DNA of 64,000 nucleotides from a virus: IMG/VR virus record IMGVR_UViG_3300044846_000719, positions 1 through 64,000 of that record. One strand, written 5' to 3'. Position 1 is the first letter of the stretch. The number at the start of each line of letters is the position of its first letter. The notes under the pieces are model-generated. The model was not told where the DNA came from and made no database searches. It worked only from the letters and a program-made list of their open reading frames with translations. Below are positions 13,669-43,500 of this stretch, piece by piece. The position numbers and the translations under genes are program-made.

Positions 13669-13688
13669 GTTTTAAAGTTTATTATACT

Positions 13689-13717
13689 AAAGGGGGATTA
13701 TATGGTCCCCCTTTTTT
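13689..13717 (+). terminator. Intrinsic terminator
   Basis: AAAGGGGGA...TCCCCCTTTTTT. Confidence 0.8.
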
Positions 13718-13729
13718 ATTATTGCAGTT

Positions 13730-24119: not shown

Positions 24120-24788
24120 TTAATCTATGTAATATCTACTTATTTTATAATAAGATAATCCAGTAGATTCAGATGCTTCTTTCAAGCTTTTGTAAGTAAT
24201 ATTATTAATTGATATTTGTCTAGCATTAGAATTATTTGAACCTGTTCTTTTTTCAGACATTTTTAATTTTGTTTCTTGAGAGTGCTTACTTCCTTTTCTA
24301 TTAAAAGCTTTTTTATGTTCCTCAGACATATAATTTGATAATCCTTTATTCCATGCTTTATTTCCTAAGTTTTTTTCACTAATTATTTTTTTGATTTCGT
24401 TTGTATGAGTTTTTCCAAACATGGGATTTTTCTCTTTGGGATGACTTATTTTCTTTAAGTATTCTTGATATTCAGCAGTATCTTTTCTACCTATCCAAAC
24501 ATCTCCTCCAATTGATGTGTTTTTTAAGTTATAACTTAAAGAATCATTAGCAGCATCTGTTTCTATTAATATTGTTTCTTCATATTTTTTAAAATCAGGA
24601 CCTTGGTATAAAATTTCTCTTATAAATAAATTTAAACCATACTTTTTTAAAGCTTTTTTAATAAGAACCCCACTTGCAATATATCCATCGTCTATATCAC
24701 CAGCATGAGAACCTATATACCATTTATTATTTTGAGTATTTATCCATTTATAAACAAAACCAAGCTTATCTATTTCTATATTCATCAT
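24120..24788 (-). mobile_element. Free-standing GIY-YIG homing endonuclease (Seg-like) with NUMOD3 repeats
   Basis: GFVY...WYIGSH, YNLK, NPMFGKTHT and KHSQETKLKMS motifs. Confidence 0.9.
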
Positions 24789-26033: not shown

Positions 26034-26180
26034 TTATCTACCTTGTCCACGATATTTTGATTCAGGAGTAGCTTTTGGTCCAACGGACTTATGTGCTTTA
26101 CCCTTCTTTTTACTTTTACTAGGAGCTAAAGTTTTTGCTGAAACTGAACTACCTTTCTTTGGTTTTGCTGCTGGTGCCAT
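26034..26180 (-). CDS. Small highly basic protein (48 aa), not in ORF track
   Basis: MAPAAKPKKGSSVSAKTLAPSKVKKKGKAHKSVGPKATPESKYRGQGR; fills the gap between the cassette and dcd. Confidence 0.7.
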   Translation of the reverse strand: MAPAAKPKKGSSVSAKTLAPSKSKKKGKAHKSVGPKATPESKYRGQGR

Positions 26181-26622
26181 ATATATAATATACTGCATTT
26201 TTTAAAGAATGCTGCATAGTCTTATAGAAAAGCTTTTTGTTATGTGGTATTAGTCCTACTTCTAAGAACATAGCATTTAAATACATAGTCTTAGAATTTT
26301 CACCAGTGTAAGTTTTTCCATCAATAGTAACTTTAGTAACTATAATATATTTACGTTGTAAGAACTGCATACCTACAATATTTAATACTTGTTCAGGTAT
26401 TGCAATTGATACAATTTCACCGGTAATAATACTACCTGAATCACAGAGAGAGTACTTATCGGCAATAAGTTCCTCTAAAGTTGCTTTAGCTCCAAACTCC
26501 ACAGCTCTATCAGCTATGTATTTTATTGAAGATGAGTTAGTTACAGTGTCAACCTTGTAACATTGAGCGCTTAAATTGGCCATAATAGTAACGCCAAAGA
26601 TTAGTATAAATAGTTTTTTCAT
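26149..26622 (-). CDS. Exported protein of unknown function
   Basis: Sec signal peptide ending LSA|Q; two Cys. Confidence 0.7.
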   Translation of the reverse strand: MKKLFILIFGVTIMANLSAQCYKVDTVTNSSSIKYIADRAVEFGAKATLEELIADKYSLCDSGSIITGEIVSIAIPEQVLNIVGMQFLQRKYIIVTKVTIDGKTYTGENSKTMYLNAMFLEVGLIPHNKKLFYKTMQHSLKNAVYYIYGTSSKTKER

Positions 26623-26624
26623 GA

Positions 26625-27608
26625 TTAATAAGTTACTGCTCCAGCATAACCAGGAGCTATTATATATAGATTTAAAGTTTGTCCGGTAGTTAAGGTACCT
26701 GTTGTGTACGTACTAACACCTGGATAAGTTATACGTACATTAGTGGTTGCTGCTTTGATAGCATTGTATTCTGTTAAAGTAAAGATACGTACATCAGGAG
26801 CTATTCTCCACTTAGAAAACCTTCCGGCTTTTCTTGCAGCTACATAATACTTATCTGCCACAGATATTATTTTGTCATCATTGACATCAAACATATGGAA
26901 AGATAAACCATTTCTATTAGTCTTATTTAAAACTACATTACTTACTGCTTGAATATCTGTATTAGTGTAGGCTTGAATTCTAGTAGGGGCATTTACTTCT
27001 ATATAATATTCTTTAGAAGGATCATAAGCTTCTGATATAGAATAATATCCTGCTGAGTTAGTATAGATTGTTTTGTAGAGAGCCCAAGAAGAAGTTGTAA
27101 CTAAATACTCAAACTCTAGTACGTAAGCTAGATTATTATTATTGTTTAGGTCATTCCATCTACCATTAGATACAAACTGTACATAGTCTTCATTACCTGA
27201 GTTGTTAGGTTCCCCAGAGTTCCAGTTCTTATAAGAATAAGTCTCTCCTGTCACCCATCTCCAAGTTCCTTCTGTTACCTCATCAGTTAAACCAATCCAA
27301 CCAGAAGGCCATAAAGCGTATAGGAAATTTTGTTCACCTGAACTTGTAATGGTTACTAAGTGACCACCCATATTAGAACAGTTAGTTCTAGCTGTAGTCC
27401 AAGTAGCACTACCTGTAGAACGGTAATAAGAGTGTCCTCCATAGTTCTGTTGATTAGTGAATCCTGTAATGGTTTGGTTTGTTCTTCTGTAGAGCTTTAT
27501 AGCAACGTTAGAAGCACCGGAACCATTTGCATTATACATGTATCCAGAATAAGTAAACTGTGCACTTAGACTATTAGTAATAAATAATATAAGGATAAGC
27601 CATCTCAT
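26625..27608 (-). CDS. Exported C-type lectin with dockerin-like module
   Basis: Signal peptide LSA|Q; C..MGGHLVTI, WIGL, EPN and WND lectin motifs; DVNDDKIISVAD Ca-binding loop. Confidence 0.88.
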   Translation of the reverse strand: MRWLILILFITNSLSAQFTYSGYMYNANGSGASNVAIKLYRRTNQTITGFTNQQNYGGHSYYRSTGSATWTTARTNCSNMGGHLVTITSSGEQNFLYALWPSGWIGLTDEVTEGTWRWVTGETYSYKNWNSGEPNNSGNEDYVQFVSNGRWNDLNNNNNLAYVLEFEYLVTTSSWALYKTIYTNSAGYYSISEAYDPSKEYYIEVNAPTRIQAYTNTDIQAVSNVVLNKTNRNGLSFHMFDVNDDKIISVADKYYVAARKAGRFSKWRIAPDVRIFTLTEYNAIKAATTNVRITYPGVSTYTTGTLTTGQTLNLYIIAPGYAGAVTY

Positions 27609-29053
27609 AGTAATAACTTAGCTCCCATCAATATTTGGAAGTTTAATATATCCTGATTAGCAACATAAGTACCACCACCTGTAATTCCTATACCAAATGT
27701 CTTTGTCATTTTGTATGTAAAGTTAAAGAAAGGAATTATAATTGGTTTAGCTTTGAATAAAGATTCTGTATAATATTTAGAATAGGGAGAATAAATACCA
27801 GCTGCAATTATTGTAGCATCTATATGCTTAGTGAGTTTTCCCTTATACATAAAACCACCTATAGCAATTGTAGAGATCATAGTCTCTCCATATAGTTTAC
27901 CATAAGTACCGGCACCCCCATAAAGTGCTGTAAAATTTTTAACTGAGTTTACTCTAACAAATAAAGCTGTGTTAGAGATTGCATTAGGCATCAGACTAAG
28001 ACCATCTGATATAACATTAATATGCTTCACTCCTTTTGAGTTAGTACCAATCCATGACTTTACACAAGATACATTTCCTATCTTAGCATTAATCATATAA
28101 TCTGCTGAAAAACCAATAGATGCGGTACCATCACCCTTTACCCTTGTAAAAGATGCAGTACCTCTAGCATCTTGAGAACCATCTGCTTTTGTTTGAATAC
28201 CAACTATATCCCCTGTAACCAGGATAGCGGGTTTGGCAACCTCAGCTTTTGCTTTGCCGGCTGCCTTTGCAGTACTAGAAGACTGAGTCTTTTGTGTCTC
28301 AGTCTTGGTCTCCTCTACTTGTTTGTCTGAGGGTTTTTCGGTTTGTACTTCCGTTTTTTCTTCGGTTTTACTACCGGAGGAACCACTACTTCCTGAGCCA
28401 CTACTACCACTGGAGCTTCCACTGCTATTGCTTCCTGAACTACTTCCGGAACTTGAGCCACTGGAGCTTCCGCCATCACTTCCTGGGCTGCTCGGATTAT
28501 TTTCTGAGCTTCCTGTTCCCTGAGTTGGTTCTCCTCCTTCCGGAGTTTTAGAATCTGGATTACTATTATTGCTACTAGTGCTACCAGGCCGATTACTACT
28601 ACTTGATCCATTATTTTCTTTATTAGTTGTTCCTACATTAGTACCTGACGAAGTGCTAGATCCAACATTTACTCCAACACTACTTATACTACCAACGTTT
28701 GAGATGGCCCCTAAATTCATAACACTACTTATGATATTTAGAGTTGTATTTGTAGTAGTTGTCGTAGTAGTAGTTGTAACTATACCTTGACAGGGTGATG
28801 TACTTTTGTATTTCAAATATACACTATTTATCCAATTATCAAAAGTTCCATCTTGTAATTCTGTATATGAAAATGTTTTGACTTGACCATAGTAAGCAAT
28901 TACTATAGGACTAGACATATTTGCGTTAATAAATTTTAACTCTTGCGTGCAAGGGTCTTGGTATTGGTATATAAACTGTTGTGCTGCAAGAGATTTGCAA
29001 ACTAAAAAAATTAAAATAAAAATAACTTTTAATGTTTTTGTCCAAGTTTCCAT
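27605..29053 (-). CDS. Exported protein with S/G/T low-complexity stalk and probable C-terminal outer-membrane beta-barrel
   Basis: Signal peptide LAA|Q; poly-Thr and SSGS repeats; about 200 C-terminal aa of alternating amphipathic strands. Confidence 0.65.
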   Translation of the reverse strand: METWTKTLKVIFILIFLVCKSLAAQQFIYQYQDPCTQELKFINANMSSPIVIAYYGQVKTFSYTELQDGTFDNWINSVYLKYKSTSPCQGIVTTTTTTTTTNTTLNIISSVMNLGAISNVGSISSVGVNVGSSTSSGTNVGTTNKENNGSSSSNRPGSTSSNNSNPDSKTPEGGEPTQGTGSSENNPSSPGSDGGSSSGSSSGSSSGSNSSGSSSGSSGSGSSGSSGSKTEEKTEVQTEKPSDKQVEETKTETQKTQSSSTAKAAGKAKAEVAKPAILVTGDIVGIQTKADGSQDARGTASFTRVKGDGTASIGFSADYMINAKIGNVSCVKSWIGTNSKGVKHINVISDGLSLMPNAISNTALFVRVNSVKNFTALYGGAGTYGKLYGETMISTIAIGGFMYKGKLTKHIDATIIAAGIYSPYSKYYTESLFKAKPIIIPFFNFTYKMTKTFGIGITGGGTYVANQDILNFQILMGAKLLL

Positions 29054-29670
29054 CCCTCTTTTAAATATTTTTCTATTTCTTCAGGTATGACTTTCTTTTT
29101 AATACCATCTTTACTTATATACTTTCTACCTAAACATACTGTTCTATTCCTAGTAGCATGTTCTATAGACACAGATTTTCCTTTTAATTTATTTTTTATT
29201 TTATCTTTTACTTCTTCTGATCTTTTTTTCCCATATATTGGATTATTGGAACCTTCCATCTTTTTTTTTAATTCTTCTTTTCTAGCTTTAACTTCTGTTT
29301 CAGAATACCAATTTTCATACTTCTTACCTTTTCTACCACTAGTTCTACCTTTACAAGACATAGATATTTTTTTCTTAGTCTCTTCTGTACGAGTAGAAGT
29401 ATTTCCATCTCCACCTAAAGTTAAATTTACTAATATTCCTCCATCTATCTTTCTTTTATATTGATTGATTAATTCTATTTCTTTCTTACATGCTTCTTCC
29501 CAAGTTAAATCCATATACAATATTTTTACTTGATATTCAGTTTTACTAACAATATGATTCCAATATCTATTCCTAGCATGTTTAGAATATGCTCTTCTTT
29601 CTGTTTTACCTATACCTATGTAAAACAATTCTTCTGTATCAAGTCTAGTATGTGAGTATACAATTGCCAT
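29029..29670 (-). mobile_element. Free-standing GIY-YIG/NUMOD3 homing endonuclease
   Basis: IVYSH...FYIGIG...RAY, EIELI, LVNLTLGGDG and NPIYGKKRSEE motifs. Confidence 0.9.
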
Positions 29671-29687
29671 AAATTTTTAACAGATAA

Positions 29688-29729
29688 AGCTCTGACCTTT
29701 TATGGACAGAGCTAGTATGCACAAAGCTA
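29688..29729 (-). promoter_or_regulatory. Promoter (TAGCTTTG) and 5' hairpin of the endonuclease gene
   Basis: -7 element at 29722..29729; AGCTCTG/CAGAGCT stem at 29688..29713. Confidence 0.6.
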
Positions 29730-29740
29730 ATAAAAATATT

Positions 29741-30430
29741 TTAATTTTTAAACACACTTGCTTTAATGAGATTTTGAATCACATTAGTACAAGCAGTTTC
29801 AAGAGACTTACGGGTAGCTTTTCCAACAGTACTCTGGGAAAATTTCATGTCATCTAAAGATTTTAAGAAGGATTCACCGGTCTTGGTTGACTCACCCTCA
29901 CCAGAACCAATATAAATTTGGCCTGTTTTAGCGTCAACAAACCTAACTTGTAGACGTATGAAAGTAGTGACAACAACTTTTGCTTTAGCACCAGCAACTT
30001 GCTCGTCTTCATCAACAGCAAAATCAGCCACAGTAACATAAACAAAGTAGTGAGCAGGTTTAATCTTACCTTTTCCATCAATGGGTTCATCAAATACACC
30101 TTTTTTAGAGGCTTTAAATTGAGTAACCATTCTCTCTTTAATCTCTGATTTTTCCTCCGTGAATATAAATCTATTAGTTTCATCTAAATAATCCAGTACT
30201 GATTCAGCAAATCCAAGACCTACGTTCTTCTCCTGTAAAGCAGGATACAAACTTAAGACTTTTGTCATGTCTACACTAACTACTTGCACTGTCTTTTTAA
30301 TAGAATCAGTGTAGCCGGAAACTGTGGAGATATCTTTTACCTCTACCGGTTCAGCATCTGTAGTAGTTTTCATACTACCACATGCAAATAATATTGTTGT
30401 CAATAAGAGACTACCAAGGATCTTCTTCAT
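29741..30430 (-). CDS. CsgG/HfaB-family outer-membrane lipoprotein
   Basis: Lipobox LFA-C; GLG...L.ETNRF.FTE, GKIKPAHYFV..TVADF and VRFVDAKTGQI match the CsgG-family pattern. Confidence 0.8.
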   Translation of the reverse strand: MKKILGSLLLTTILFACGSMKTTTDAEPVEVKDISTVSGYTDSIKKTVQVVSVDMTKVLSLYPALQEKNVGLGFAESVLDYLDETNRFIFTEEKSEIKERMVTQFKASKKGVFDEPIDGKGKIKPAHYFVYVTVADFAVDEDEQVAGAKAKVVVTTFIRLQVRFVDAKTGQIYIGSGEGESTKTGESFLKSLDDMKFSQSTVGKATRKSLETACTNVIQNLIKASVFKN

Positions 30431-30725
30431 CTACTTTAGGTTTAGTTGCTGGAGCAGGAGCAGGTGCGGGAGCAGCCTTTTCTTTGATGATAATGGTTTT
30501 ACCCCCACCACCAGTGTTTGCTTGTTGCTTTTGTTCGTTGTTCGTAGTAATGTTAATCACAGGTGCAGGGGCTGCTACAGCAGTTGGAGTTTCTGGCTTT
30601 TCATCTTCACCACCACCTAAGTGAGTAGCAAACCAAGCACCACCGGCTGTAACAGCAGTGGTGATTGCTCCAATAATGGTTTTTTTGATAGCGGACATAC
30701 CGCTCTCTTCTTTTTCTTCTGACAT
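30411..30725 (-). CDS. Single-TM protein with Pro/Ala-rich extended tail
   Basis: IIGAITTAVTAGGAWFA helix and APAPAPA repeats; overlaps the CsgG-like start. Confidence 0.7.
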   Translation of the reverse strand: MSEEKEESGMSAIKKTIIGAITTAVTAGGAWFATHLGGGEDEKPETPTAVAAPAPVINITTNNEQKQQANTGGGGKTIIIKEKAAPAPAPAPATKPKVDEEDPW

Positions 30726-30736
30726 GATATTATATA

Positions 30737-31078
30737 TTAGTTTTCTTCTTGTTTACTATATTTAGCAGCTATAATTTCTGGAGTATCGTCTTCCTCATCG
30801 GTTTTTTTAATTAGCATCTTGTCACGGTCTTCAGAGTTAAACCAATAATCAATAACTTTATTTAAGTTACCAACGAAGGCACCCAATAGAATAAGTAACA
30901 TTTCTTTCCAGTCATCCTCTATTTTTACTCCAACAAATACTGCTGAATTGATTCCTACTATGATTAAAGTAAATAACCCTAAAATTACTAACGTGATTCT
31001 CCACCTATTACTCTGCATTTCCTGCAGCATGTTATAGAATCTATTAGTATCAGGTTTTGTTGTTTCTATATTGCTCAT
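30737..31078 (-). CDS. Two-TM membrane protein (holin-like)
   Basis: Two hydrophobic helices, LLGAFVG...IDYWFNS, charged C-terminal tail. Confidence 0.6.
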   Translation of the reverse strand: MSNIETTKPDTNRFYNMLQEMQSNRWRITLVILGLFTLIIVGINSAVFVGVKIEDDWKEMLLILLGAFVGNLNKVIDYWFNSEDRDKMLIKKTDEEDDTPEIIAAKYSKQEEN

Positions 31079-32970
31079 TTGTTTACAATTATTTTAGAGT
31101 GTAATGATTCTGTTTCAGTAGTTACAGAAAGAATATAAATACCATCTGATAGACAATCTAGGTTTGCACTATACTTGTACTTGCCAGCTGGCATACGTTC
31201 TTTTAAAATAGTCTGTACACGTCTTCCTACTTCATCAGAGATAGACATATCTACATCAGATGCTTCTTTAATCTTAAACTGTATTTGTATATCTCCTTCT
31301 GTAGGATTAGGGAATACTATAATGGAGTTTAAGTCATTAAGAGAGATAGTTCCTTTGTTAATTCTACGTACCTCTACAATACCCATAGCCGGAATAATGT
31401 TCATATCTTTAGAGTTAGCGTCTCCTACATACTTAGCACCTGTCCAGAGAGCTGCAGTAGCCCAACTATCTTGTGGTTTTTTAGCAATAAACTGAAGTGT
31501 AAAAGCTTGCTCTCCATCATTAAGCATATTCTCATTAGTTAAATCAGCACCTCCCCAAGATACTAAACCATTAGAAGGATTAAAGAATGAAGTCCAGTTC
31601 ATTACTTTATCAGTGTTTTGTACTGCTTTAAATTCTAAGTAAGCAGTATCATACTTAAGATCTAATTGTAATGCACCTAACTTTTTACCATTAGTTAAAA
31701 CTTTAACCGGTACATTAACTAGGTTACCTTCTTCTACAGTTACTTTAGGCATATTTACCTCAATAGTTTCTGCAGGGAAATCATAACTTACAGTCTCATC
31801 AATGATGTAACGTTTAGCGTTAGCTGGATTAGTAATTTTAATAGGAGTTAAACGGGCCATTTTAAAGCCTGTAGAGTTTGCATCTCCTTTAACAGCCACG
31901 TAGTAAGTGATAGAATCATTACCATCTACACTGTAAGTAAAGTTATTTATAGTAGAGTAAGTAGAAGTCAAGTTAGAAGTAGCTCCATTAATTGCATTGT
32001 ACTCAGCAACTGTAAAGAACATTACATCTTTCTTAGAGTTAGGCCAAGCAGAGAATCTACCGGCTAATCTACCATATACAGAATATACATCAGCAATAGA
32101 AATATCACCGGCAGTTCCGTTTACATCCATTGTGTAGTAATCAAATCCGGTAGGAGTATATTGACCTAAGATAGATTGGTTAATCTTTTGTGCATCTGCA
32201 GTAGAGAATACATTACCTGGGATCATTGTGTCTCCCTTAACTACAATACGTACATCCCAATAAGTGGTATCTAAGAATTTCTTAAATACAGTAACACCCA
32301 ATGAGTTAGTCTTTTGTGAAGCAATCTGAGACCAAGTAGAAGAACCTTTAGCTCTTTTCTCTAAACTAACTGTTAAATTCTTAGCATCTGTACCGGTAAT
32401 GTTTTTAAACTTAGTAGCAAAGCGCAATACTTTCTGATTGAAGCGTCCACCATAAGAGTAAACTACCAAGGTAGTATCATTACCCCAGTTAGTGGCAGCT
32501 CTGTTAGAAAATGATTTAACACCAGCAACTTTCAAAGTCTTAATAGAATCTAAGTTGTTCCAAACTGTTTCACCTGCGTGAGTAAAAGTTAAATCAAATG
32601 TAGCTCCATTAGAATAGTTAAAAGTAGAACTAGATCCTGTGTAAGCCAAAGTAACTGTCAAGAATCCTTGTAGGTTACTATCTACATACTGAAGGTATTG
32701 ATCAGAAGCAGAAATCTTAAGAGAAGGTACAACTCCTGTAAAAGCAGTCTTATCATAGAATACACGGAATTGTATACCGGTAATCTTTTCTGATGTAGAT
32801 GTATTGTAAAAATGTAAAGGTGCAACAGTTTGTCCTACAGTAGTAGTAGCAACCTGATATCCTGAATCAATAACCACCCAATGACCTGTACCGGGTGATG
32901 TAGCAGAACTTTGTGCAAAGCTTAAAGAAGCTATTAAAGTTCCGAATAGTGTCGTAATCAATTTTTTCAT
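31075..32970 (-). CDS. T9SS type A cargo protein: cohesin / Ig-like / dockerin-like / cohesin / CTD
   Basis: Signal peptide SFA|Q; cohesin-like GIQFRVFYD and NVPV...GALQLDLKYD; DVNG..GDISIAD; CTD VFPNP...GR.V...LSDGIYIL...KIIVNK. Confidence 0.9.
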   Translation of the reverse strand: MKKLITTLFGTLIASLSFAQSSATSPGTGHWVVIDSGYQVATTTVGQTVAPLHFYNTSTSEKITGIQFRVFYDKTAFTGVVPSLKISASDQYLQYVDSNLQGFLTVTLAYTGSSSTFNYSNGATFDLTFTHAGETVWNNLDSIKTLKVAGVKSFSNRAATNWGNDTTLVVYSYGGRFNQKVLRFATKFKNITGTDAKNLTVSLEKRAKGSSTWSQIASQKTNSLGVTVFKKFLDTTYWDVRIVVKGDTMIPGNVFSTADAQKINQSILGQYTPTGFDYYTMDVNGTAGDISIADVYSVYGRLAGRFSAWPNSKKDVMFFTVAEYNAINGATSNLTSTYSTINNFTYSVDGNDSITYYVAVKGDANSTGFKMARLTPIKITNPANAKRYIIDETVSYDFPAETIEVNMPKVTVEEGNLVNVPVKVLTNGKKLGALQLDLKYDTAYLEFKAVQNTDKVMNWTSFFNPSNGLVSWGGADLTNENMLNDGEQAFTLQFIAKKPQDSWATAALWTGAKYVGDANSKDMNIIPAMGIVEVRRINKGTISLNDLNSIIVFPNPTEGDIQIQFKIKEASDVDMSISDEVGRRVQTILKERMPAGKYKYSANLDCLSDGIYILSVTTETESLHSKIIVNK

Positions 32971-33419
32971 TTGTTTATATTATTTAAAGCGTGTTCTATC
33001 AACCAAGGTTCTGGGTTTGTTAATTTTTCTATGAAGTTTAACTCATACATATAACAAAATGTCTCTTCTTTTGCGGGAATAAGTTCTATCCCTTTTTTAG
33101 CTATGTACAAGTGAAGACTTTCATGTACTAGCACTACAGCAATATTATTTATAGAGTTTAATTTAATATCATCTACTGCTATGTAGATATGACCTAAACC
33201 ATCCTCTATTTGACATGAAGAGTAAGGACTAATCATAAAAGATATTTGATAACAATTTGTATCAAGCATCTTATACTTATCTATGTCTACTCTTTTTATT
33301 AGTTGAATTGCTGAATCAACTTTTAAATCCCAACCATCCCCGGCTTTGTCAATTTTTATTTGACTAAAACAAGGGACGGCTAAGATTATTAAGAGGCTAA
33401 ATAATAACCTCTTTAACAT
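32967..33419 (-). CDS. Exported HEXXH zinc metallopeptidase-like protein
   Basis: Start reassigned to MLKRLLFSLL (signal peptide CFS|Q); VLVHESLH with downstream EE..CY. Confidence 0.75.
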   Translation of the reverse strand: MLKRLLFSLLIILAVPCFSQIKIDKAGDGWDLKVDSAIQLIKRVDIDKYKMLDTNCYQISFMISPYSSCQIEDGLGHIYIAVDDIKLNSINNIAVVLVHESLHLYIAKKGIELIPAKEETFCYMYELNFIEKLTNPEPWLIEHALNNINK

Positions 33420-34014: not shown

Positions 34015-34737
34015 TTATAGTTTATAGTTTATAGTAAACAGTAAATAATTCCAGTTAGTCTTGCTTTTAACTTTTCCTTGGCAGTAAGATCTTAACTTGT
34101 TGTAACTTATTTCAGTAATCTCTGAAGCAATTCTGAGATTCTCATAAGTCTCTCCTGTTTCAGTATTGATTACTTGTTTAGACTTAGGATTATCTGCACC
34201 AAGTCTTACTGAATGTTTTCTATTCTTAAAAGCTTCAGAATTCTTTAAAGACTCTTTTATCTTAAGTTTAGTTTCTTCTGTAAGGGTGCTACCTAATCTA
34301 CTCTGTCTAAGTTTTTCTTTTGTTTCCTCAGAATGATTCTTTCCATAAAAGTGGTTCTTTTCGCCCACTCTTAATTTAGCTACTTCAGATAGATTCTTAC
34401 ACATAGATTCTGGTAAAGATTTTCCTGTCCAGTATCCAACTTCATGTCTCCAACCTAAAGTACCTTGACCTCCATCAGTCCAATTAACTAGACTACCTCC
34501 ACAAGTATCTACTCTGCCATACACACTTATCAGTTCTATTTCTTTTACACAAGCCTCCTCAAAAGATAAATCATCTAACATAATCTCTACTCTATACTCT
34601 GAGTTCTTTACAACATTATGCCAGTGTTGATTTCTACTTTTAGTTTGGTGTGCTCTAGAATAATTAGAATCTGTACCTAATCCAATATAGAAAGGTACAT
34701 TCTTATCTAACCTGATATGTCTGTAGACATAAGCCAT
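34015..34737 (-). mobile_element. Free-standing GIY-YIG/NUMOD3 homing endonuclease
   Basis: YVYRH...FYIGLG, EIELI, LVNWTDGGQG and NHFYGKNHSEE motifs; paralogous to 29029..29670. Confidence 0.9.
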
Positions 34738-34739
34738 GT

Positions 34740-34988
34740 TTATTCAGCAGAGTCCCCTTCTTTCTTTTTCATTACCTTTTCGATGCTCGTGAGCCCAAGA
34801 GTGCCAAAAGCTAACAATGCAACTGCATCCACTAAAGGAACAGATGGAGCAAAGTGTGCTTCAGTAAATGAGTTAGCGTACAATGTAGCGCATAGTGTAA
34901 TTGTGCAGACCAAGCCACACAGACGTTTCATGGAAACAGAGCCTTTTTCATCCTTGAACAGGCCGCCAATAAAGTTTAATAGTTTCAT
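34740..34988 (-). CDS. Putative holin (2 TM)
   Basis: 82 aa, S-x-K-R before TM1, second TM, charged tail; upstream of the endolysin. Confidence 0.6.
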   Translation of the reverse strand: MKLLNFIGGLFKDEKGSVSMKRLCGLVCTITLCATLYANSFTEAHFAPSVPLVDAVALLAFGTLGLTSIEKVMKKKEGDSAE

Positions 34989-35252: not shown

Positions 35253-35259
35253 AATGTAG

Positions 35260-35274
35260 GGGGAGAAATCCCCC
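35260..35274. terminator. Hairpin between convergent genes
   Basis: GGGGA-GAAA-TCCCC. Confidence 0.65.
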
Positions 35275-35275
35275 A

Positions 35276-38200
35276 TTATTTTACATAGAAATCTGTTACA
35301 TTATCATAAGACTGCCACCTGTTTATTGTATACAGTACCGGCAATGCATCTGACCATTGTTTATTAAGTTTTAACTCACCTTTTCTAGAACCTTGTTTAT
35401 AATACAAACTTTCTTCATCAAATGCATAGTTGTAAGGAAAAGCAAATGTATCACTAACAGCCTCTCCTAACTCACCAAGTAACTTAGATGAAGCAATAGG
35501 ACTCTTCATTAACATGTAAGCATTAGCAGGACTAATGAAACTTGTTAATTCTGATGTTTGTCTATCTGCTTGATAAGCCAATCCATTTAGTAATCTTTTA
35601 AGTTGTTTGTCATCATCATCTAAATCCATACCCGCAATTAATGAAGATATAATATGAGCAATAGCAAATGAAGATAATATAAATGTAAGTTCTATAGCTA
35701 CTCGGTTTAAGTTTTTAATTTGATCCTCTCTTAAACTTTCTTTAGCATCTCTTATCTTAGTAAAGATATCTCCTCTGGCAGATTTAATATGAGAGATAAA
35801 GCTTGCAAATGTCCGGTATCTACCCTCAATCCAACCAAGGTTTTCATCATAGTACTCTCTTTTAAATCTTGCTTTAAATGCTGGATATACCCACTTGTGA
35901 AACTGGAATACTAATTTACCAATACTATAATCTTGTAAAGCTGCTCTATCTTCAGGAGAATAGTTACCGTGTATTTGTTTGTTTACTTCACGGATATTAT
36001 TCCTAATATCATAACGTTCATTATCTGATAAATCAAATCCTGTTTTTAAAGATAACTCCCCGGTGTTAGGATCAAAGTCATAAGCATCATAAAGAGAGAG
36101 TGTCTCACCTTTATCATTTTCAATCTGCTTAGACATTAAGATTGCCATACCTACTTTACTCTGTACATTTGTTTCCGCAGCATCTTGTAAAACATAACCC
36201 CACTCCATTAAACCACCCTTCTCTTTTACCTCACGTTGAGCTACACTATCTACCATTCTATACTGATATAGTAAGGCCTCATACTTTGATTGTGGTTTTT
36301 TCTCACCATAGTATCCTTCACTAGTAGCTAATCCTTTAAATACACCAGGTAAATATTCACTGTTGTAAATACCTGTTGCTCTAAGCATAGCTTTTCTATC
36401 ATAGAATAACTGACCACCAGTCTCAATGCCGTTGTTGATTCTACCCATAGCATAGTTATTGATATTACCAAAGATGTTAAATCCTACATATGATAAAGAT
36501 GTGGCATTAAGTACTTTACTTATAACGTTATCTAATGTGCTTTTATCAAACTCGGACTCTTCATAGTAAACCATCTTTAACCATTTCTTCAAACGGGTAG
36601 CTGTTCTACTCTCTGAGCCAGGAATTGTTTTAGCTTTAGTTCCGCCAGTTGCTGTACGTACAAGTACATTTTGAGATTGTACATACTCTCTATTTTCAAC
36701 AACTCTTTTTAGTGCATAGATAGTATCTTCTGCATTAGTTAAGTGCTGATAGTTAGAAGCCATTGCTCTAAACTTAATTAAGCTATCTACTAGATCAGTA
36801 TTAAGTTCATCCTTAGTAAGCATAGATTCATTTCTCTTAAGTTGTTTTTCTAACTCCTTTAGCTGCTCTCTATACTTAACTGTAGATACTTTACCATCTC
36901 TAAAACTAGTTTGTAACTCTTCTATTTCAGATTTAATCTTATCAATACTAAACTGGCTTTTTAATTTGCCGGTAAAGAAGATTGGTGGTGTTTCAATAAT
37001 ATTACCCTCTTCATCTGTAAGAACTATCTTTTGATAACCCTCATCTGTAAAACTTTTAAACCAACTAGATACTGACTTACTTAGTAAGCTAGTCACACTA
37101 GATGGATTATCTTTTAACTTGTTTAAGAAGTTTTGTTTTTGTCTAGGTAACTTACCTGTCATATCTCTTTTAACAGAGGGAGGTAACATCTTAAGTGCAC
37201 CATTTTCAAACTCCTGGATCCAGAAATCATAGAACTCTTTCTGAGCTCTCTCTAATTCTGTAGTAGGATTCATGATCTTGACATACTTTTCATCAAGCAT
37301 ACTCATACCATTATCAGCTACATCTTTTACCTCTTTAAACTCAGGCTTTACAAACCAAGACTTTCTAACAGCTGTAGCACCTAAATAACTACCGTCTTTC
37401 TCTCTTTGTGCAGTTACGTATTCAGAGTAGTTATAGTATTTATTTCTATAAATAGCATACTCAGCATCTGATATGCCACGTTTCTTTTTCCATCCATAGT
37501 TACGATATTCTTCATACTTATCCCTGATCTTCTTAAAGTCATCAGTGTATTTATGAAACTCACCATCAGTTACTTCACCACCAATTACTCTTTCAGCTTT
37601 AGTAAAATCACTATAAGCTTGTCTATTAGCAAATAATTCTTGATTGAATTTAATATCCTCTACTTTAGCATCATCAAGATTAGGAATGTTGATGTACTCT
37701 AACCAGTTATTATTATTATCTACAAGCTTGTTTCTTAAATCATAAAACATCTTATAGTATTGGTAACCAATCTTTTGTACATACCTACCAGTAAAGTTGC
37801 CATCTTTATCATAAACTAACATATAATCATATGATGGCTTACCTCCTGATAAAGATGCTAATCTATTACCTATAGTAATTGCTTTTTCACTAAACTGTTG
37901 AACATCATCTGCAATCTTTTGCTTCTCCCTCTTAAATACTTTATCAACCAAGGCTAAGATTGTATCTGTACTAGTAGCCAAATCACCAAGTTGTGCATCT
38001 GCTACAGAGATATCATTAGTCTCTTTAATAATTGTCTTTAAATCATCTTCAGTAAAGTTTCTATTAGAGTTAGTTCTAATGAAGTTAATTGTAAAGTTCT
38101 CTATAGCCTGATCAATAGTAGAATCAGCAATATTTAATAGATCTGTTACTGCAATTGCAATATCTCTCTGACCTGGATTAATAACATTACTCAAACTAAG

Positions 38201-40567
38201 ATTACGAATACCTCTATAGGTTTCCATAAATTTACTAAACATAAGTACTACAGAAATATAATCTTCTTTAGCAACTGATTTTGGATTAGAGGCATACTTG
38301 ATAAAGTTCTCTAACTCTTCTTTAGAACTGTTTAAGAATCTACCTAAAGCTATATCAGCCTTACCGGAGTTTATCTCAGTACTAAGTACAGCAATCAAAC
38401 TATTAATTTTATCTATAGTCTGTTTCTTAGGTTTAACTTGTTTAGATGAATCAATAATACTTTGTAAGGCATCATTACGTTTTACTAACTGTGAAACCAC
38501 ATCCTTCATAAACAAAGAAATGTTTGTATATTGCTCATCTGTTAAACCGGCCTCTGGTTTCTCTTGCTCAGGAGTTAAAAAGTCAGGATTATTAGTAACG
38601 TTAAAACCATTTTTAATCTTAAGATCATTAACTACATTCTGAAAAGGAATAGTAGGAATTATTCTATCTACATAAGCTAGATTTTCTGTCTCATTATGTT
38701 GTACTACACCTTCTACTCTAAAACTTTTTACCTTCTGATCTTTACCTTGACCTTCTATATTTAAGTTATAATGATAGGTAGATACACCAGATACCGGGAA
38801 ACCATTGATATTAGCTAACTTGGCATAACCCATTACCTGAATACTTTGCTGTTGCTTAGTAGTTAATTTTTCACCCGGTAATAAAGTACCTTCATTTGTA
38901 GAATAAGGTACATCATAGTATCCAGGATCTTTTATACTTGTCTTAGATACTTTTAAATCTATAATGTACAATGACCCATCTGGCTTAATAATTAATACAT
39001 CTAATGAACCGGCAATTTTAGATTGATCATCAGCAAGAATAACTTGCGGTAAGATTATAGAACCATCTAACGTAAGAGTAGCTACATATGCACTAAGTGA
39101 ATCATATGCATCTTCAGCTAAAGCTGGATCTAATACAGTCACACTTTCTAGGGCCTCATCAAATGTTTTACCATCTATAATATCCTGAAGAATCTTATCA
39201 AAGTCTTTACCAAATAACCTATTCATTTCATATAGATCATTTGGATCATTAAGACCACCTTTAATAGCAGAAGTCATAGATTTATATTCCTCTCCCGTCT
39301 CTAAATTAGTATACGTGTGTGTATCTTCATCTAAGAACATTGGTGTATCATATAGAGTATCTACTATATCTCTCTGTAAATTATTTATAGCTCTATCTTT
39401 AGCTGCTTTCTTACTGGCCTGTTTTCTAATATACTCAGGATCATTCTTATCAATACTTAACTTAACTGAACTTTGTACTTCACTAGTAATAGGTCCTGTT
39501 GTAAAGCGTAACTCTTTAGTATTTAATAACTTAGCAATATCAGTAAGGGTAACATTTTCATTTAAATCTTCAGCAATAATATCTAAACTATTACCTGTAA
39601 TGCTTTTATAGATATCATTTATGATTTCTGCAAACCATTCTATCAACTCTCTAATTGCAGTTTTAAATGAATTACCTGGTTGATTCTCATACTCTTTTTT
39701 AAAGTATCTAGTCAATGCTTGAGTAACTAACTCAAGGTCTCTATACTTTTCAAAAAATCCTTTTTTATTAGCGTAACTATCTTTTATCTGTTGTTCTAAT
39801 ACTGGAAAACTTTTTCTTGCTTCAACAACTAACTTACCAAATATATCAGGCCTACTAACATATAATGCATCTACTACTGGGTGAAGCATTTCTTCAATTG
39901 CTGTCTCAGTAGTAATCCGGCTCTTAATTATATAAGCTTTGTTCTGATAATAAAAACTCTTAACGTTTTTAAAATTTACTATTGGCTTATATGGTAATGA
40001 CTCATATAATTTTTTAGCATCCTCTACAGATACTATCTCATATTCTACATCTGGTAAAATAGTAGATAGATACTCTAGTACATCAATAGCATTATTTGTA
40101 TTCTCTGATTCTCCAATTACATCAACCGGAGTAAACATATTTTCATTAATTGTAAACTCTATACTATTTTGTGTAGGTCTAAAATCATATGTTTCACTAG
40201 ATATCTTATTATAATTCAGATAGTTAATAATTCTATTTTTATTATTTACAAGAATAGCAGGATCTATTTCCTGCATACCTTCTATAGTACCTGTTACAAA
40301 GTATCTGATTTTATCACCAACTGTGACACTAGATATCATGCGCCTCCTTCTGAGATTACTAATTACAGCTTCAGCATATTGTTTCTTTTTAACACTAAAC
40401 TTTACTTTATTAGCCTGTACAATTTCTTGAGCTTCTGCAATACTTGGAAATGTATCTGAATCTCTTGAAGATTGATATTGATCAATGATACCATCTACAA
40501 TTAGATTGTTATTATATATACCCATTAGGGCCTTGTATTCCGGTAAATTTCTATTATGACAAGCCAT
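35276..40567 (-). CDS. Large virion cargo/ejection protein with a PD-(D/E)XK nuclease domain
   Basis: 1763 aa directly downstream of vRNAP; IAGSLDVL...IIDLK...QQQSIQVMGY; degenerate zincin-like EEMLHP. Confidence 0.75.
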   Translation of the reverse strand: MACHNRNLPEYKALMGIYNNNLIVDGIIDQYQSSRDSDTFPSIAEAQEIVQANKVKFSVKKKQYAEAVISNLRRRRMISSVTVGDKIRYFVTGTIEGMQEIDPAILVNNKNRIINYLNYNKISSETYDFRPTQNSIEFTINENMFTPVDVIGESENTNNAIDVLEYLSTILPDVEYEIVSVEDAKKLYESLPYKPIVNFKNVKSFYYQNKAYIIKSRITTETAIEEMLHPVVDALYVSRPDIFGKLVVEARKSFPVLEQQIKDSYANKKGFFEKYRDLELVTQALTRYFKKEYENQPGNSFKTAIRELIEWFAEIINDIYKSITGNSLDIIAEDLNENVTLTDIAKLLNTKELRFTTGPITSEVQSSVKLSIDKNDPEYIRKQASKKAAKDRAINNLQRDIVDTLYDTPMFLDEDTHTYTNLETGEEYKSMTSAIKGGLNDPNDLYEMNRLFGKDFDKILQDIIDGKTFDEALESVTVLDPALAEDAYDSLSAYVATLTLDGSIILPQVILADDQSKIAGSLDVLIIKPDGSLYIIDLKVSKTSIKDPGYYDVPYSTNEGTLLPGEKLTTKQQQSIQVMGYAKLANINGFPVSGVSTYHYNLNIEGQGKDQKVKSFRVEGVVQHNETENLAYVDRIIPTIPFQNVVNDLKIKNGFNVTNNPDFLTPEQEKPEAGLTDEQYTNISLFMKDVVSQLVKRNDALQSIIDSSKQVKPKKQTIDKINSLIAVLSTEINSGKADIALGRFLNSSKEELENFIKYASNPKSVAKEDYISVVLMFSKFMETYRGIRNLSLSNVINPGQRDIAIAVTDLLNIADSTIDQAIENFTINFIRTNSNRNFTEDDLKTIIKETNDISVADAQLGDLATSTDTILALVDKVFKREKQKIADDVQQFSEKAITIGNRLASLSGGKPSYDYMLVYDKDGNFTGRYVQKIGYQYYKMFYDLRNKLVDNNNNWLEYINIPNLDDAKVEDIKFNQELFANRQAYSDFTKAERVIGGEVTDGEFHKYTDDFKKIRDKYEEYRNYGWKKKRGISDAEYAIYRNKYYNYSEYVTAQREKDGSYLGATAVRKSWFVKPEFKEVKDVADNGMSMLDEKYVKIMNPTTELERAQKEFYDFWIQEFENGALKMLPPSVKRDMTGKLPRQKQNFLNKLKDNPSSVTSLLSKSVSSWFKSFTDEGYQKIVLTDEEGNIIETPPIFFTGKLKSQFSIDKIKSEIEELQTSFRDGKVSTVKYREQLKELEKQLKRNESMLTKDELNTDLVDSLIKFRAMASNYQHLTNAEDTIYALKRVVENREYVQSQNVLVRTATGGTKAKTIPGSESRTATRLKKWLKMVYYEESEFDKSTLDNVISKVLNATSLSYVGFNIFGNINNYAMGRINNGIETGGQLFYDRKAMLRATGIYNSEYLPGVFKGLATSEGYYGEKKPQSKYEALLYQYRMVDSVAQREVKEKGGLMEWGYVLQDAAETNVQSKVGMAILMSKQIENDKGETLSLYDAYDFDPNTGELSLKTGFDLSDNERYDIRNNIREVNKQIHGNYSPEDRAALQDYSIGKLVFQFHKWVYPAFKARFKREYYDENLGWIEGRYRTFASFISHIKSARGDIFTKIRDAKESLREDQIKNLNRVAIELTFILSSFAIAHIISSLIAGMDLDDDDKQLKRLLNGLAYQADRQTSELTSFISPANAYMLMKSPIASSKLLGELGEAVSDTFAFPYNYAFDEESLYYKQGSRKGELKLNKQWSDALPVLYTINRWQSYDNVTDFYVK

Positions 40568-40570
40568 CTC

Positions 40571-43500
40571 TTATAAATAACATTTTTTTATTTGTTCTAC
40601 AAAACTATTTTGATCACCACCATTGGTCTTTACATAATCTTTGTACTGATCTACAAAGTTAACCAATGAAGTAATATTTAAATCTTGTTTTATTTTATCT
40701 TTTTGTTCATCTGTAAGTTCCATAAAGAACTCACTAAGAACAGGATAATCAGTCCTTGCTTTAAACATTGCACCTATAGCAGGATTAAATGCCGCAGCTG
40801 GCACATTTGCTAACATAGCTTCTACATCACCAATCTCTGGTTCTTGAGCTTTAGGTGTTAAAGTCTTAGCTAATTCTGCAGGTGATTTTGCATCTGTTTC
40901 ATATGGTTTACCATCTTTTTCATATACAATCTTTTTACCCACTGTTTTAGCTTGAATACCATTAGAAGCTAAAGTACTATTAATATTAGCTGGAGCATTA
41001 CTAAGATCTATATTGCCTAATTGTTTATCTATATTGGCTGCTTGATCATCAATTAATTTATCAATATTAGTATCAGGCATTGCTCCAGGATTATTAAAGA
41101 CATCTTTATTCTTTCTATTAGCAAATAGCTGTGTACTAGTTGGTAAATTACCGGGTATTACAAACCCTGAAGCAAATTGTTTTTTAGAACCAGTTGAAAT
41201 AAATTTTTCATACTCAGCAGACACACCAAAAGCATACACATCACCAGGTTGAATAAGATCAGCTAAATTTTCTTTATTATCTACCCTATCTCTTTTTACA
41301 GTAGTTAGTTTATAATAAGTAATAAGTTTACTCTTATCTGAAAATTCTACTATTTTAATAACTAATGGAAAACCAATCTGTGTTTTTTCATCCTTATTTG
41401 CTAAAATAAAACCTAAAGCCTTTAAATATTTTAAATTGTATCTATATAATTTCTTACCTTCCTCAGTTAATTTAGATGGACCAGGTAGAGAAATCATAGG
41501 TTGTACAATCTGATAATTACCTTTACTATCTACAATCATCTCATCACCTTTGTAATTAGAAACATCACCTAAAGGAATCATTTCTTTTTCAAATTCTGTA
41601 TTTTTAAATACATTAACTTCAAGTTTATCATTAGCAATTACCATTGGGGATTTTAATTCTACACCAGAAGCAATATTTAAATCTTTTTTAAGTTCATTAA
41701 GTTGATCATTCTTACTAATCTTTGACCTTATATTTTTTGTAAAGAATGTTACACTAGAAGACTGTAAGAATCCTCTAACAAATTCATTATACAATTCATT
41801 AAGATTTACACCAAATGTTTTTACTACTAATCTATCATCAGCCTGACCTTTTAATGCGGTAACAGCAGAAGCAGATGAATTAAGAATCATTTCAAACATA
41901 AAGTTTGGCATTATTCTAATAAAAGATCCTGACTTAAACTGACCACCATCTTTAACTAATAAGTAATGGAATAAGTCAATTGCATATGGTCTAGTTAACT
42001 CATTAGTATATAACTCCATAAAGCTATACTGTATCTTATTAACTTGTAATTTACTTAATTTAGTCCAGTTATTAAACTCTACTTTATTTATAGCATCTTT
42101 ATTAGCTCTATTACCTGCAGTGATAGCAAACAAAAACTTGTTTACAAAATAGTTATTAGGGCTTAACTCTCTTAATTTTTTAACAACATCAGTTACATTA
42201 TCCATATTTTCAGGTAATGTACTTGCTGTCTGGTCATAAATCATTCCATTATTTAGAGAAGCAAGTGCTCTATTATAACCACCTTTCTTTAATATATTAA
42301 CATATGCTTTAATTGCAAAGAAAGAAATTAAGTTTTTATCTAAAGTATTTTTAAAATTTTTACGGTCTCTAAAATTAACGTCCGTATTTGCTATTACAAT
42401 ATCACGTAATCTATTAACCACTGGAGTACGGTTAAGCATGACACTACCCATTAAAGATTTAATTTCTCTATACACGGTAAAATTAAATCCAAATGTATTA
42501 TCTGAATTACGTAATAATGCACGTACATCAAATGGTATTGAACTAACTTCAAACTCTTTGTCATTCATTTCTAAACCTAAATCAACAGCTTTATTATAAA
42601 TCTCATCAAACTCTGTTAAATCTTTATTAGGTAGACCTTTGTTAAGTTTTAATATTGAAGATAAACTCATCATAGCATCACTTTGTCCTATAAGTACCTT
42701 AAAGTTATTAAGAACCGCTATTTGTACAGCAGCAATATTTCTTCTAATACCTTCTTCAAGATCTGCTGTTGTAATATTAGAAGGAACTTCAGTTACTTTA
42801 TATTCATCCATTAACTCTTTGATAATAGCTGTTTTACCTTTAATTCTTTCGCTATCTTTTGCATAAGATGATTTATTAGTTCTTAAACGTTTATAAAACT
42901 CATGTATTATAGGTTGATTAATAAATAATATACTATCATCTAATGACACACCCTGAGCAATCATATTTGCTACAATACCAAGAGAATCTATATTCAAACC
43001 TAATTTAGCAGCAAGACGTTCTTTAGCGTTATCTGTCATGGCTGATACTAAAGCTGACAAGATAAACATTATACGTTCACCATCATATTGTCCAGTTTCT
43101 GGATTATATGCTTGAGTCTCACCATAAGTATCAAACTCTTTACCATTAAGTTTAAATCTTAAGTTAGTAAGATCTATTTTCTCACCAGTTTCATCAGTAT
43201 AACTATTTGTTTTTCTAATTTTTATTTTATAAGGATTTACTACTGTATATACCAACAATGCGTTAACTGCAGCCCCAATATTTCTAGAACCTTCCTTATT
43301 ATTTCTAAATCCATAATATTTACCTAATAAAGTATCTACATTATATCTACCTTCTTCTAATTGATCTCTAAGTTCAGGAAATCTTTCAGTAAAGCTTTTA
43401 ACAATATCTTTAAGAGGTTGTACAGTTGCTACCTGGAATGCTTTAGGAATTTTTCCTTCTTCGGCAGTAACCATATCCGTATTGTTTAATAAAGCAATAC

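Follow-up and report, generated by a model that had tools for sequence, protein, structure and literature searches.

A conserved phage gene cassette for exported cohesin, lectin, CsgG-like and beta-barrel proteins and a proposed role at the outer envelope

The virus record IMGVR_UViG_3300044846_000719 of IMG/VR is 96.7 kb long, and its first 64 kb (64,000 nucleotides; hereafter the window) were analysed here. On the minus strand, at 26149–33419 and following an endolysin gene, the window carries a cassette of eight co-oriented genes. Read from sequence, all eight products bear a signal peptide, a lipobox or transmembrane (TM) helices. They include a scaffold with a cohesin domain and a type IX secretion system (T9SS) C-terminal domain (CTD), a C-type lectin "head" protein, an outer-membrane lipoprotein of the CsgG family and a stalked beta-barrel protein (Table 1). 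The cassette genes stand in constant order in 80 IMG/VR loci, wherever the DNA reaches, which argues that the cassette is not a product of chance.

The genes are closely packed. ATGA overlaps occur between cassette genes at 32967–32970, 31075–31078 and 27605–27608, the 1-TM gene shares 20 nt with the lipoprotein gene, and a single nucleotide separates the endolysin gene from that of the HEXXH protein. No convincing minus-strand terminator was seen within the cassette block. An initial annotation of this DNA had described these open reading frames (ORFs) at the same coordinates as a co-oriented series, joined by ATGA or short overlaps, whose products are all exported or membrane proteins, and examination of the sequence confirms that description. 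Absent from its list was a cytoplasmic GIY-YIG/NUMOD3 homing endonuclease, encoded at 29029–29670, that interrupts the run. This gene is a mobile insertion and no component of the cassette; it lies between the lipoprotein and barrel genes only in L002, L006, L024 and L025, and other relatives have a homing endonuclease gene between the 2-TM and 1-TM genes instead. More broadly, the window has replication genes on the plus strand and then a long minus-strand block with very large structural genes. With 36% identity, the DNA polymerase of the crAss-like Cellulophaga phage phi14:2 is among the best cultured matches to the window polymerase, and a crAss-like affiliation of the window phage is plausible on this sequence comparison.

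Table 1. Genes of the cassette and of the adjoining lysis region, in window coordinates; aa, amino acids.
Feature	Coordinates	Strand	Basis
Putative holin, 82 aa, two hydrophobic helices and charged C-terminus	34740..34988	-	translation
GIY-YIG homing endonuclease between holin and endolysin, outside the cassette	34015..34737	-	sequence
Endolysin, 195 aa	33421..34008	-	phrog_3000 E 2.5e-37; phrog_33083 "endolysin" E 2.5e-13
Secreted HEXXH protein, 150 aa	32967..33419	-	signal peptide; HESxH motif
Scaffold, 631 aa, cohesin and T9SS type A CTD	31075..32970	-	Pfam, TIGR04183
2-TM inner-membrane protein, 113 aa	30737..31078	-	sequence
1-TM single-pass protein, 104 aa	30411..30725	-	alignment
Outer-membrane lipoprotein, divergent CsgG-family homologue, 229 aa	29741..30430	-	lipobox, fold, profile
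GIY-YIG/NUMOD3 homing endonuclease between lipoprotein and barrel genes	29029..29670	-	phrog_314 E 3.6e-20; NUMOD3
Stalked beta-barrel protein, 482 aa	27605..29053	-	AlphaFold2 model, VIA
Lectin "head" protein, 327 aa	26625..27608	-	Pfam Lectin_C
Secreted 157-aa protein, core cassette member	26149..26622	-	signal peptide

A scan of IMG/VR with the lipoprotein returned 126 confirmed stretches, and 80 loci were kept. Lipoprotein identity is nowhere lower than 75% across these 80 loci and falls below 80% in one of them only. Within the cassette, the membrane parts are the most conserved, and the HEXXH and 157-aa proteins the least. The cassette is present, with its order kept, in at least four phage lineages. 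Among the 50,697 phage records of GenBank, searched with the lipoprotein or the scaffold, it was found only in four immuto records, which represent three isolates. Flavobacterium phage vB_FspM_immuto, a 160-kb myovirus whose host is Flavobacterium sp. LMO8, is the only cultured relative that carries the cassette. Its genes 13–19 are homologous to seven cassette proteins at 25–52% identity, with im16 corresponding to the 1-TM protein, im18 to the barrel and im19 to the 157-aa protein. The lectin gene stands at the front of the immuto cassette, and the scaffold is split into two genes, encoding an adaptor (im14) and a cohesin and CTD protein (im15). Fusion in the window and splitting in immuto thus provide a Rosetta-stone link between the dockerin-like part of the scaffold and its cohesin/CTD part. 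No homologue of the HEXXH or the 2-TM protein was detected in immuto, and the HEXXH homologue was likewise undetected in several other loci. The immuto cassette sits among nucleotide-metabolism genes. Directly before it lies gp12 (L001:8652–9230), annotated as DNA/RNA endonuclease G (NUC1), which has a signal-peptide-like start and may, from its sequence, be another exported protein.

Two further genomes extend this distribution. The complete 166-kb phage G002 carries the cassette at 66–83% identity, and no match to the DNA polymerase or the 1763-aa protein of the window was found in it. The full cassette set is also present on L084, a 254-kb contig in a Bacteroidetes metagenome-assembled genome (MAG); genes for topoisomerase II, PRPP kinase and a tail-collar protein near the cassette mark this contig as phage-like. 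In L084 the 1-TM gene precedes the 2-TM gene, and an extra 273-aa ORF (13513–14334), for which no PHROG match was found, lies between the head gene and that of the 157-aa homologue. Six core genes retain a constant order at 25–50% identity in immuto and L084, the genomes being otherwise unrelated. The expectation that the genes would co-occur in other phage genomes is therefore borne out by the 80 loci, immuto and the 254-kb contig.

A sample of 400 bacterial genomes from the phylum to which the Bacteroidetes MAG belongs yielded no close homologue; all matches there were distant, with E values of 1e-10 or weaker. As far as sampled, then, the cassette is on sequence evidence a phage module that moves between phage lineages. 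The initial annotation had named a chimeric host insert as an outcome that would overturn it. A host insert or chimera was rejected, given the occurrence of the block in 80 viral contigs and the lack of a close homologue in the 400 bacterial genomes. Related contigs have been binned with Flavobacterium and Sediminibacterium MAGs. One 16.5-kb contig with the cassette (L083; RFPL01000028.1), whose lipoprotein gene is 99% identical to that of the window, was deposited in a Sphingomonadaceae MAG, a placement that is probably a binning error.

In comparisons with five close relatives, the pairwise ratio of nonsynonymous to synonymous substitution rates (dN/dS) lies well below 1 throughout the cassette. 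It is 0.05–0.17 in the genes of the lipoprotein, scaffold, head and barrel, and no gene exceeds about 0.4 where an estimate of dS was possible. Divergence is mosaic between neighbouring genes: relative to L003, identity is 99% for the endolysin, 53% for the HEXXH protein and 52% for the 157-aa protein. Pairwise distances of the cassette genes intercorrelate (Spearman 0.35–0.84), and their correlations with the endolysin are mostly lower (0.15–0.55). The HEXXH and 157-aa proteins were considered as a specific co-varying pair, an idea that was dropped because their correlation of 0.80 equals that of the HEXXH protein with the adjacent scaffold (0.80).

The scaffold comprises, in order, a signal peptide, an N-terminal cohesin-like domain, an immunoglobulin (Ig)-like and dockerin-like module, a cohesin and a T9SS type A CTD. 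Pfam Cohesin (PF00963) matches residues 403–524 with 41.3 bits against a cutoff of 24.1, and the CTD is recognised both by Por_Secre_tail (PF18962; residues 552–629, 44.4 bits, cutoff 27) and by TIGR04183 (37.6 bits, cutoff 23). The second, N-terminal cohesin-like domain (residues 42–153) is sub-threshold at 18.4 bits (E 0.0026). Among the cassette proteins, the scaffold alone carries a T9SS CTD. The head protein consists of a signal peptide, an Ig-like domain with an inserted C-type lectin and a constant dockerin-like C-terminal module. Lectin_C (PF00059) matches residues 68–163 with 66.4 bits (cutoff 22.6), and the EPN (GEPN) and WND motifs of the window lectin are kept in all Lectin_C-type homologues of the alignment examined. 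By these sequence features the head is a canonical Ca-type C-type lectin for which sugar binding is predicted, and the lectin assignment made in the initial annotation holds at this Pfam score. The constant module of the head, about 130 aa long, is paralogous to scaffold residues ~210–340. Common to both are one conserved D-x-N-x-D-G-x-I-x-x-x-D loop and flanking helices, and the first repeat is degenerate. The Pfam Dockerin family (PF00404) found no match on the window proteins, and the sequence of the shared module is consistent with a dockerin but not significantly so.

Among relatives, the lectin insert is replaced by a PA14 domain, a GEVED domain or an unknown domain of ~200 aa, with the constant module retained. 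The slot thus holds at least four different domains, with about 31 instances of Lectin_C, 10 of PA14, 10 of GEVED and 15 of the ~200-aa domain among the extracted ORFs. The initial annotation had noted neither this exchange of domains nor the recurrent adjacency to endolysins of two unrelated families that is described below. A separate source of variation is the large gene directly upstream of the holin (window 35276–40567), which is hypervariable among close relatives, with 17 sequence clusters in 32 loci (L003–L046 region). In sequence, this gene varies as that of a receptor-binding protein would; a PHROGs search with the 1763-aa copy in the window gave no match. The possibility that head type tracks this upstream gene was rejected, as one upstream type occurs with three head types, in a sample that is small and confounded by relatedness.

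Turning to the lipoprotein, the window copy has the lipobox LFAC followed by GS. Every distinct N-terminus listed from the viral loci retains the lipobox Cys and, after it, GSMKTTT (with one GT and one MQ variant); in the immuto homologue the Cys is absent. Neither Pfam nor NCBIfam gave a match to the window protein even at E 10, a sequence profile of its family returned nothing useful from PDB sequences, and an exhaustive phmmer search found only 166 clusters. Among 51 aligned phmmer homologues, 20 match Pfam CsgG (PF03783; best 1.9e-25) and nine match LpoB. The AlphaFold2 (AF2) model (predicted local distance difference test score, pLDDT, 75.6) has as its top Foldseek matches the CsgG structures 4uv2 and 4uv3 (E 8.9e-8, TM-score 0.58). 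VIA-align places CsgG 6lqh_A first, at Z 13.7 with a root-mean-square deviation of 3.1 over 173 aa, ahead of a runner-up at 11.3 and of LptE-, PelC- and CT253-type lipoproteins at Z 9–11, and phage CsgG is the top match of the model in the viral library. Aligned by hhalign, the family profile and E. coli CsgG match over 226 columns with a probability of 94.6% (E 7e-8). Judged by model and profile, the product of 29741–30430 is a divergent CsgG homologue predicted to adopt the CsgG alpha/beta fold.

The pore is another matter. The model has one long hairpin at residues 128–166 with a charged tip (DEDE/KAK). The stretch opposite E. coli CsgG TM1 in the hhalign alignment is six residues shorter and highly charged, and the stretch opposite TM2 is polar and modelled as a loop and helix, with no hairpin predicted; the positions taken for TM1 and TM2 are those reportedly given by Goyal et al. 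2014. No cassette protein matches the curli families csgA, csgB, csgE or csgF in Pfam or NCBIfam. CsgG itself is a nonamer with a 36-strand barrel (PMC4594475). With the TM1 equivalent short and charged and a TM2 hairpin not predicted, the modelled protein leaves curli-type pore formation unsupported. Of the "CsgG-like pore" named in the initial annotation, the fold and homology are thus upheld by Foldseek, VIA and hhalign, but the pore is not.

More distant relatives of the lipoprotein occur in other contexts. Four MAG loci, from Rhodothermales, Ignavibacteriales, Bacteroidota and Chitinispirillum, have no cassette but a solitary CsgG-family gene at 32–36% identity, which Pfam confirmed in two of them. 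The distant homologues P0160, P0167, P0231 and P0259 seem, by sequence inspection, to be fused to a caspase-like Peptidase_C14 domain, and in the bacterial MAG locus L090:9959–12899 a Pfam-confirmed Peptidase_C14 adjoins a lipoprotein homologue. By eye, P0259 also seems to bear a C-terminal barrel-like region ending in Phe.

The 482-aa protein begins with a signal peptide and a small conserved N-terminal domain with a Cys pair, continues through a disordered linker and ends in a C-terminal barrel. The linker, of about 170 aa, is rich in Ser, Gly, Thr and Asn, and residues 87–273 are disordered in the AF2 model. The barrel itself has 12 strands at 276–480 (pLDDT about 70–80), and its VIA matches are generic outer-membrane barrels: CymA (Z 16.3), OmpG (15.7), PorV (15.1), NalP (14.9) and EspP (14.5). 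A beta-barrel on a Ser/Gly/Thr stalk, as first proposed, is what these models return. The autotransporters NalP and EspP tie with generic 14-strand barrels and PorV, the helices preceding the barrel have a pLDDT of about 30, and no Pfam Autotransporter match was found on this protein. An autotransporter-like (type Va) topology is possible from the model.

Among the smaller proteins, the HEXXH protein has an invariant HESxH motif in 37 homologues, which share the blocks HES.HL, KAGDGWD and EE..CY.YE. It belongs to no named family among those searched, with only weak or irrelevant hidden Markov model matches such as phrog_1365 (E 0.0018); the peptidase label given to it earlier has the motif behind it and no family match. 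No small protein of the cassette is more conserved than the 2-TM protein, in which ~60 residues are nearly invariant across 43 homologues; in L084 it is 76% identical where the lipoprotein is 47% identical. It was considered as the holin and set aside, since the product of 34740–34988 is a better candidate and holins are usually far less conserved than the 2-TM protein. The 1-TM protein has a conserved N-terminal TM helix, a Pro/Ala/Lys/Glu-rich tail and an invariant C-terminal Trp. For the 157-aa protein, viral members make up at least 92% of each of the nearest Atlas clusters, and its profile aligns co-linearly but weakly with that of the CsgG-like family (hhalign probability 12%). The idea of a second CsgG-like protein was provisionally dropped on that value, along with a Lipoprotein_16 lead present in 23% of one Atlas cluster. 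No useful Pfam or NCBIfam match was obtained for the barrel, 157-aa, 1-TM or 2-TM proteins.

Taken as a unit, the cassette could be a late-expressed, horizontally mobile phage module that builds an outer-envelope assembly with an exchangeable glycan-binding head, a proposal that we favour and to which we give an even chance. Sec would export the scaffold, and the host T9SS would then move it across the outer membrane. The head may plug into a cohesin through its dockerin-like module and may travel with the scaffold. The phage barrel, the CsgG-like lipoprotein and the two small inner-membrane proteins would anchor or position the assembly, with no curli-type pore involved. Near lysis, the assembly would alter what the cell surface and its debris bind. 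Speculatively, a glycan receptor might be masked, leading to superinfection exclusion or to protection of progeny from debris; equally speculatively, infected cells and debris might be stuck to new hosts or particles. The steps of this model beyond export are inferred, and the role is speculative. A bolder and doubtful version holds that the cassette arms the cell surface: the T9SS-tagged cohesin scaffold would take untagged, dockerin-bearing lectin heads through the T9SS by hitch-hiking, the complex would be held by the stalked barrel together with a CsgG-like ring linked to the inner membrane, and the lysing cell and its debris would be reprogrammed to bind specific glycans or to cease binding them.

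Several points weigh against an outer-envelope assembly of this kind. The cohesin and the T9SS CTD claimed in the initial annotation score above their Pfam and TIGR04183 cutoffs, but the dockerin claimed with them has sub-threshold matches only: Pfam Dockerin_1 reaches E 0.0067 in one homologue, below its cutoff, and among 16 PDB matches to a profile of the module are four dockerin sequences (two molecules) at E 0.27–1.4. The head has no CTD, and thus no evident route across the outer membrane. Cargo with a type A CTD can be released rather than anchored. Head type does not follow the hypervariable upstream gene, which leaves the receptor-masking version unsupported. Finally, the position of the cassette next to endolysin genes fits a role in lysis as well as it fits late timing.

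This last point underlies the main rival, a spanin-like lysis accessory, in which the 1-TM protein and the lipoprotein, perhaps with the barrel, would span the periplasm and breach or detach the outer membrane, the cohesin and lectin genes being passengers. A two-component spanin pairs an i-spanin, with an N-terminal TM helix and a periplasmic coiled coil, with a small o-spanin lipoprotein, usually encoded with the lysis genes. In the window group the cassette follows the holin and endolysin, and in a second arrangement a holin homologue or an endolysin follows the 157-aa gene; holin homologues lie mostly upstream of the endolysin, and directly after the 157-aa gene in L064, L067, L069, L070 and L073. 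G002 has genes for a phrog_199 holin and a phrog_181 endolysin immediately after the cassette; this endolysin is of another PHROG family than the window endolysin, which is unmatched in that phage. On the L084 contig, a phrog_181 endolysin is encoded on the opposite strand, ~750 bp upstream. The cassette thus stands beside an endolysin in three of the four lineages, with two unrelated endolysin families, and this repeated adjacency argues for lysis-time expression or a lysis role. The 20-nt overlap of the single-pass TM gene with the lipoprotein gene also recalls overlapped two-component spanins, and the region shows no further evident spanin pair. Measured against such a pair, the 1-TM protein and lipoprotein show the TM helix, the gene overlap and the lysis adjacency, but neither the coiled coil nor the small o-spanin: the 1-TM protein has a Pro/Gly-rich periplasmic part of low complexity, and the mature lipoprotein is a globular CsgG fold of ~210 aa, unlike small o-spanins. 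Furthermore, the immuto homologue is Cys-less and the immuto endolysin lies 27 kb from the cassette, and lectin, cohesin and barrel genes accompany the pair in every lineage. We regard a spanin function as unlikely.

A released complex is rather less likely still. Here the T9SS would secrete the scaffold and its docked head as a soluble protein that attaches to polysaccharide or particles in the surrounding medium. Secretion in soluble form is common among the type A CTD proteins of Flavobacteria. T9SS cargo of "Cryophage" has also been suggested to consist of secreted enzymes or virulence factors (Bellas et al., PMC7468147), but the four membrane proteins (2-TM, 1-TM, lipoprotein and barrel) are the most conserved and always co-inherited, which is hard to explain if the product is purely soluble. 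That the genes have no joint function, being independent exported moron genes collected and kept together by linkage only, would accord with the mosaic divergence seen against L003 (endolysin 99%, HEXXH protein 53%, 157-aa protein 52%), with homing endonucleases inserted at several points and with the undetected HEXXH and 2-TM homologues of some lineages. It sits poorly with the constant order of six core genes at 25–50% identity in immuto and L084, the fusion and splitting of the scaffold, the paralogous module common to head and scaffold, and cassette-gene distances that correlate with one another (0.35–0.84) and mostly less with the endolysin (0.15–0.55), and we consider it very unlikely. 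Hardly credible is the view that the products are virion parts that decorate or belong to the phage particle. The block does follow the structural genes on the same strand, and receptor-binding proteins typically exchange their binding domains, but a Sec signal, lipobox or TM helix in every product and a T9SS CTD in one would route them away from cytoplasmic virion assembly, the cassette lies among nucleotide-metabolism genes in the myovirus immuto, and it occurs in phage genomes unmatched to the polymerase or large structural protein of the window.

In the literature on phage cohesin, dockerin, lectin or T9SS cassettes, no paper describing the combined cassette was found. The only report found of phage T9SS cargo concerns "Cryophage". 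Its variants differ in genes whose products bear type A T9SS sorting domains, a PA14 protein among them, and the authors presumed that the cargo hijacks the host T9SS (Bellas et al. 2020, PMC7468147). The likeness lies in phage-encoded, variable type A cargo that includes PA14. The "Cryophage" cargo genes, however, are single genes in flexible islands, and the words cohesin, lectin and CsgG are absent from the text of that paper (PMC7468147), whereas here the CTD is on the scaffold only and the variable head lacks one. Pelagimyophages have csgG/csgF "curli" clusters, for which aggregation ("sibling capture") was proposed (Zaragoza-Solas et al. 2020, PMC7029224), and they share with the cassette a phage CsgG-family lipoprotein in an operon with hypothetical exported proteins (PMC7029224). 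Their CsgG is close to proteobacterial CsgG and comes with CsgF (PMC7029224); in the cassette, by contrast, the Pfam CsgG model is missed, no CsgF, CsgA, CsgB or CsgE is matched, conservation of the TM hairpins is not apparent, and the lipoprotein is accompanied by a barrel, a cohesin scaffold and a lectin.

Cellulosome-type and non-cellulosomal cohesin–dockerin surface assemblies, built of an anchoring scaffoldin, an adaptor scaffoldin and a dockerin-tagged subunit, resemble the cassette in having a cohesin above threshold with a second cohesin-like domain and an exchangeable cargo domain, in the DxNxDGxIxxxD loop with flanking helices present in scaffold and head, and in a fused or split layout like that of anchor and adaptor scaffoldins. 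They differ in that the present genes are encoded by lytic phages of Bacteroidota, with a T9SS CTD instead of a sortase or SLH domain, and that the cargo is a lectin or a PA14 or GEVED domain and no enzyme; the dockerin-like module, moreover, has only one canonical Ca loop and is sub-threshold. The PelC/PelB and LptE/LptD pairs likewise have a CsgG-superfold lipoprotein encoded beside an outer-membrane barrel, and PelC and LptE are structural matches of the lipoprotein at Z 8.8–9.6, but CsgG is the best match here (Z 13.7), polysaccharide and lipopolysaccharide export genes are absent, and the 12-strand barrel with its mucin-like stalk is unlike PelB or LptD. Proteins of the T5 Llp and TraT/Cor type are single small outer-membrane lipoproteins, phage- or plasmid-encoded, that mask a protein receptor. 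They resemble the cassette in proposed role only, TraT being a weak fold match (Z 7.8), and differ from an eight-gene module with a lectin head.

Should an outer-envelope assembly be correct, lytic phages of abundant aquatic Bacteroidota would remodel the surface of a cell about to die by means of a modular plug-and-socket complex with an interchangeable head. This would bear on the means by which progeny escape debris or reach new hosts in dilute water, on particle aggregation and carbon flux, and on the carriage of untagged partners by the T9SS; the genes would also offer a natural cohesin–dockerin display chassis for Bacteroidota. The bolder surface-arming version, if true, would represent a new class of phage–host envelope manipulation and the first natural cohesin–dockerin system in a virus. 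A cultured pair, vB_FspM_immuto and Flavobacterium sp. LMO8, makes the question directly testable.

Around the cassette, a PADLOC search of nine proteins gave no match, and no PHROG match was found for the putative 82-aa holin. At 35259–35274, a GC-rich, perfectly paired hairpin that has T-runs on both strands divides the structural genes from the holin region and reads, by its sequence, as a strong bidirectional terminator that would close the preceding structural gene. Farther along the minus strand, a single ORF of 4687 aa occupies window 40571–54634 amid other very large ORFs (778–1763 aa); PHROG matches were absent for all four of its neighbours tested. Three GIY-YIG homing endonuclease genes lie on the same strand within 11 kb (24120–24788, 29029–29670 and 34015–34737). 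The second and third are 36–38% identical by tblastn, and the 34015–34737 copy occurs in some relatives only.

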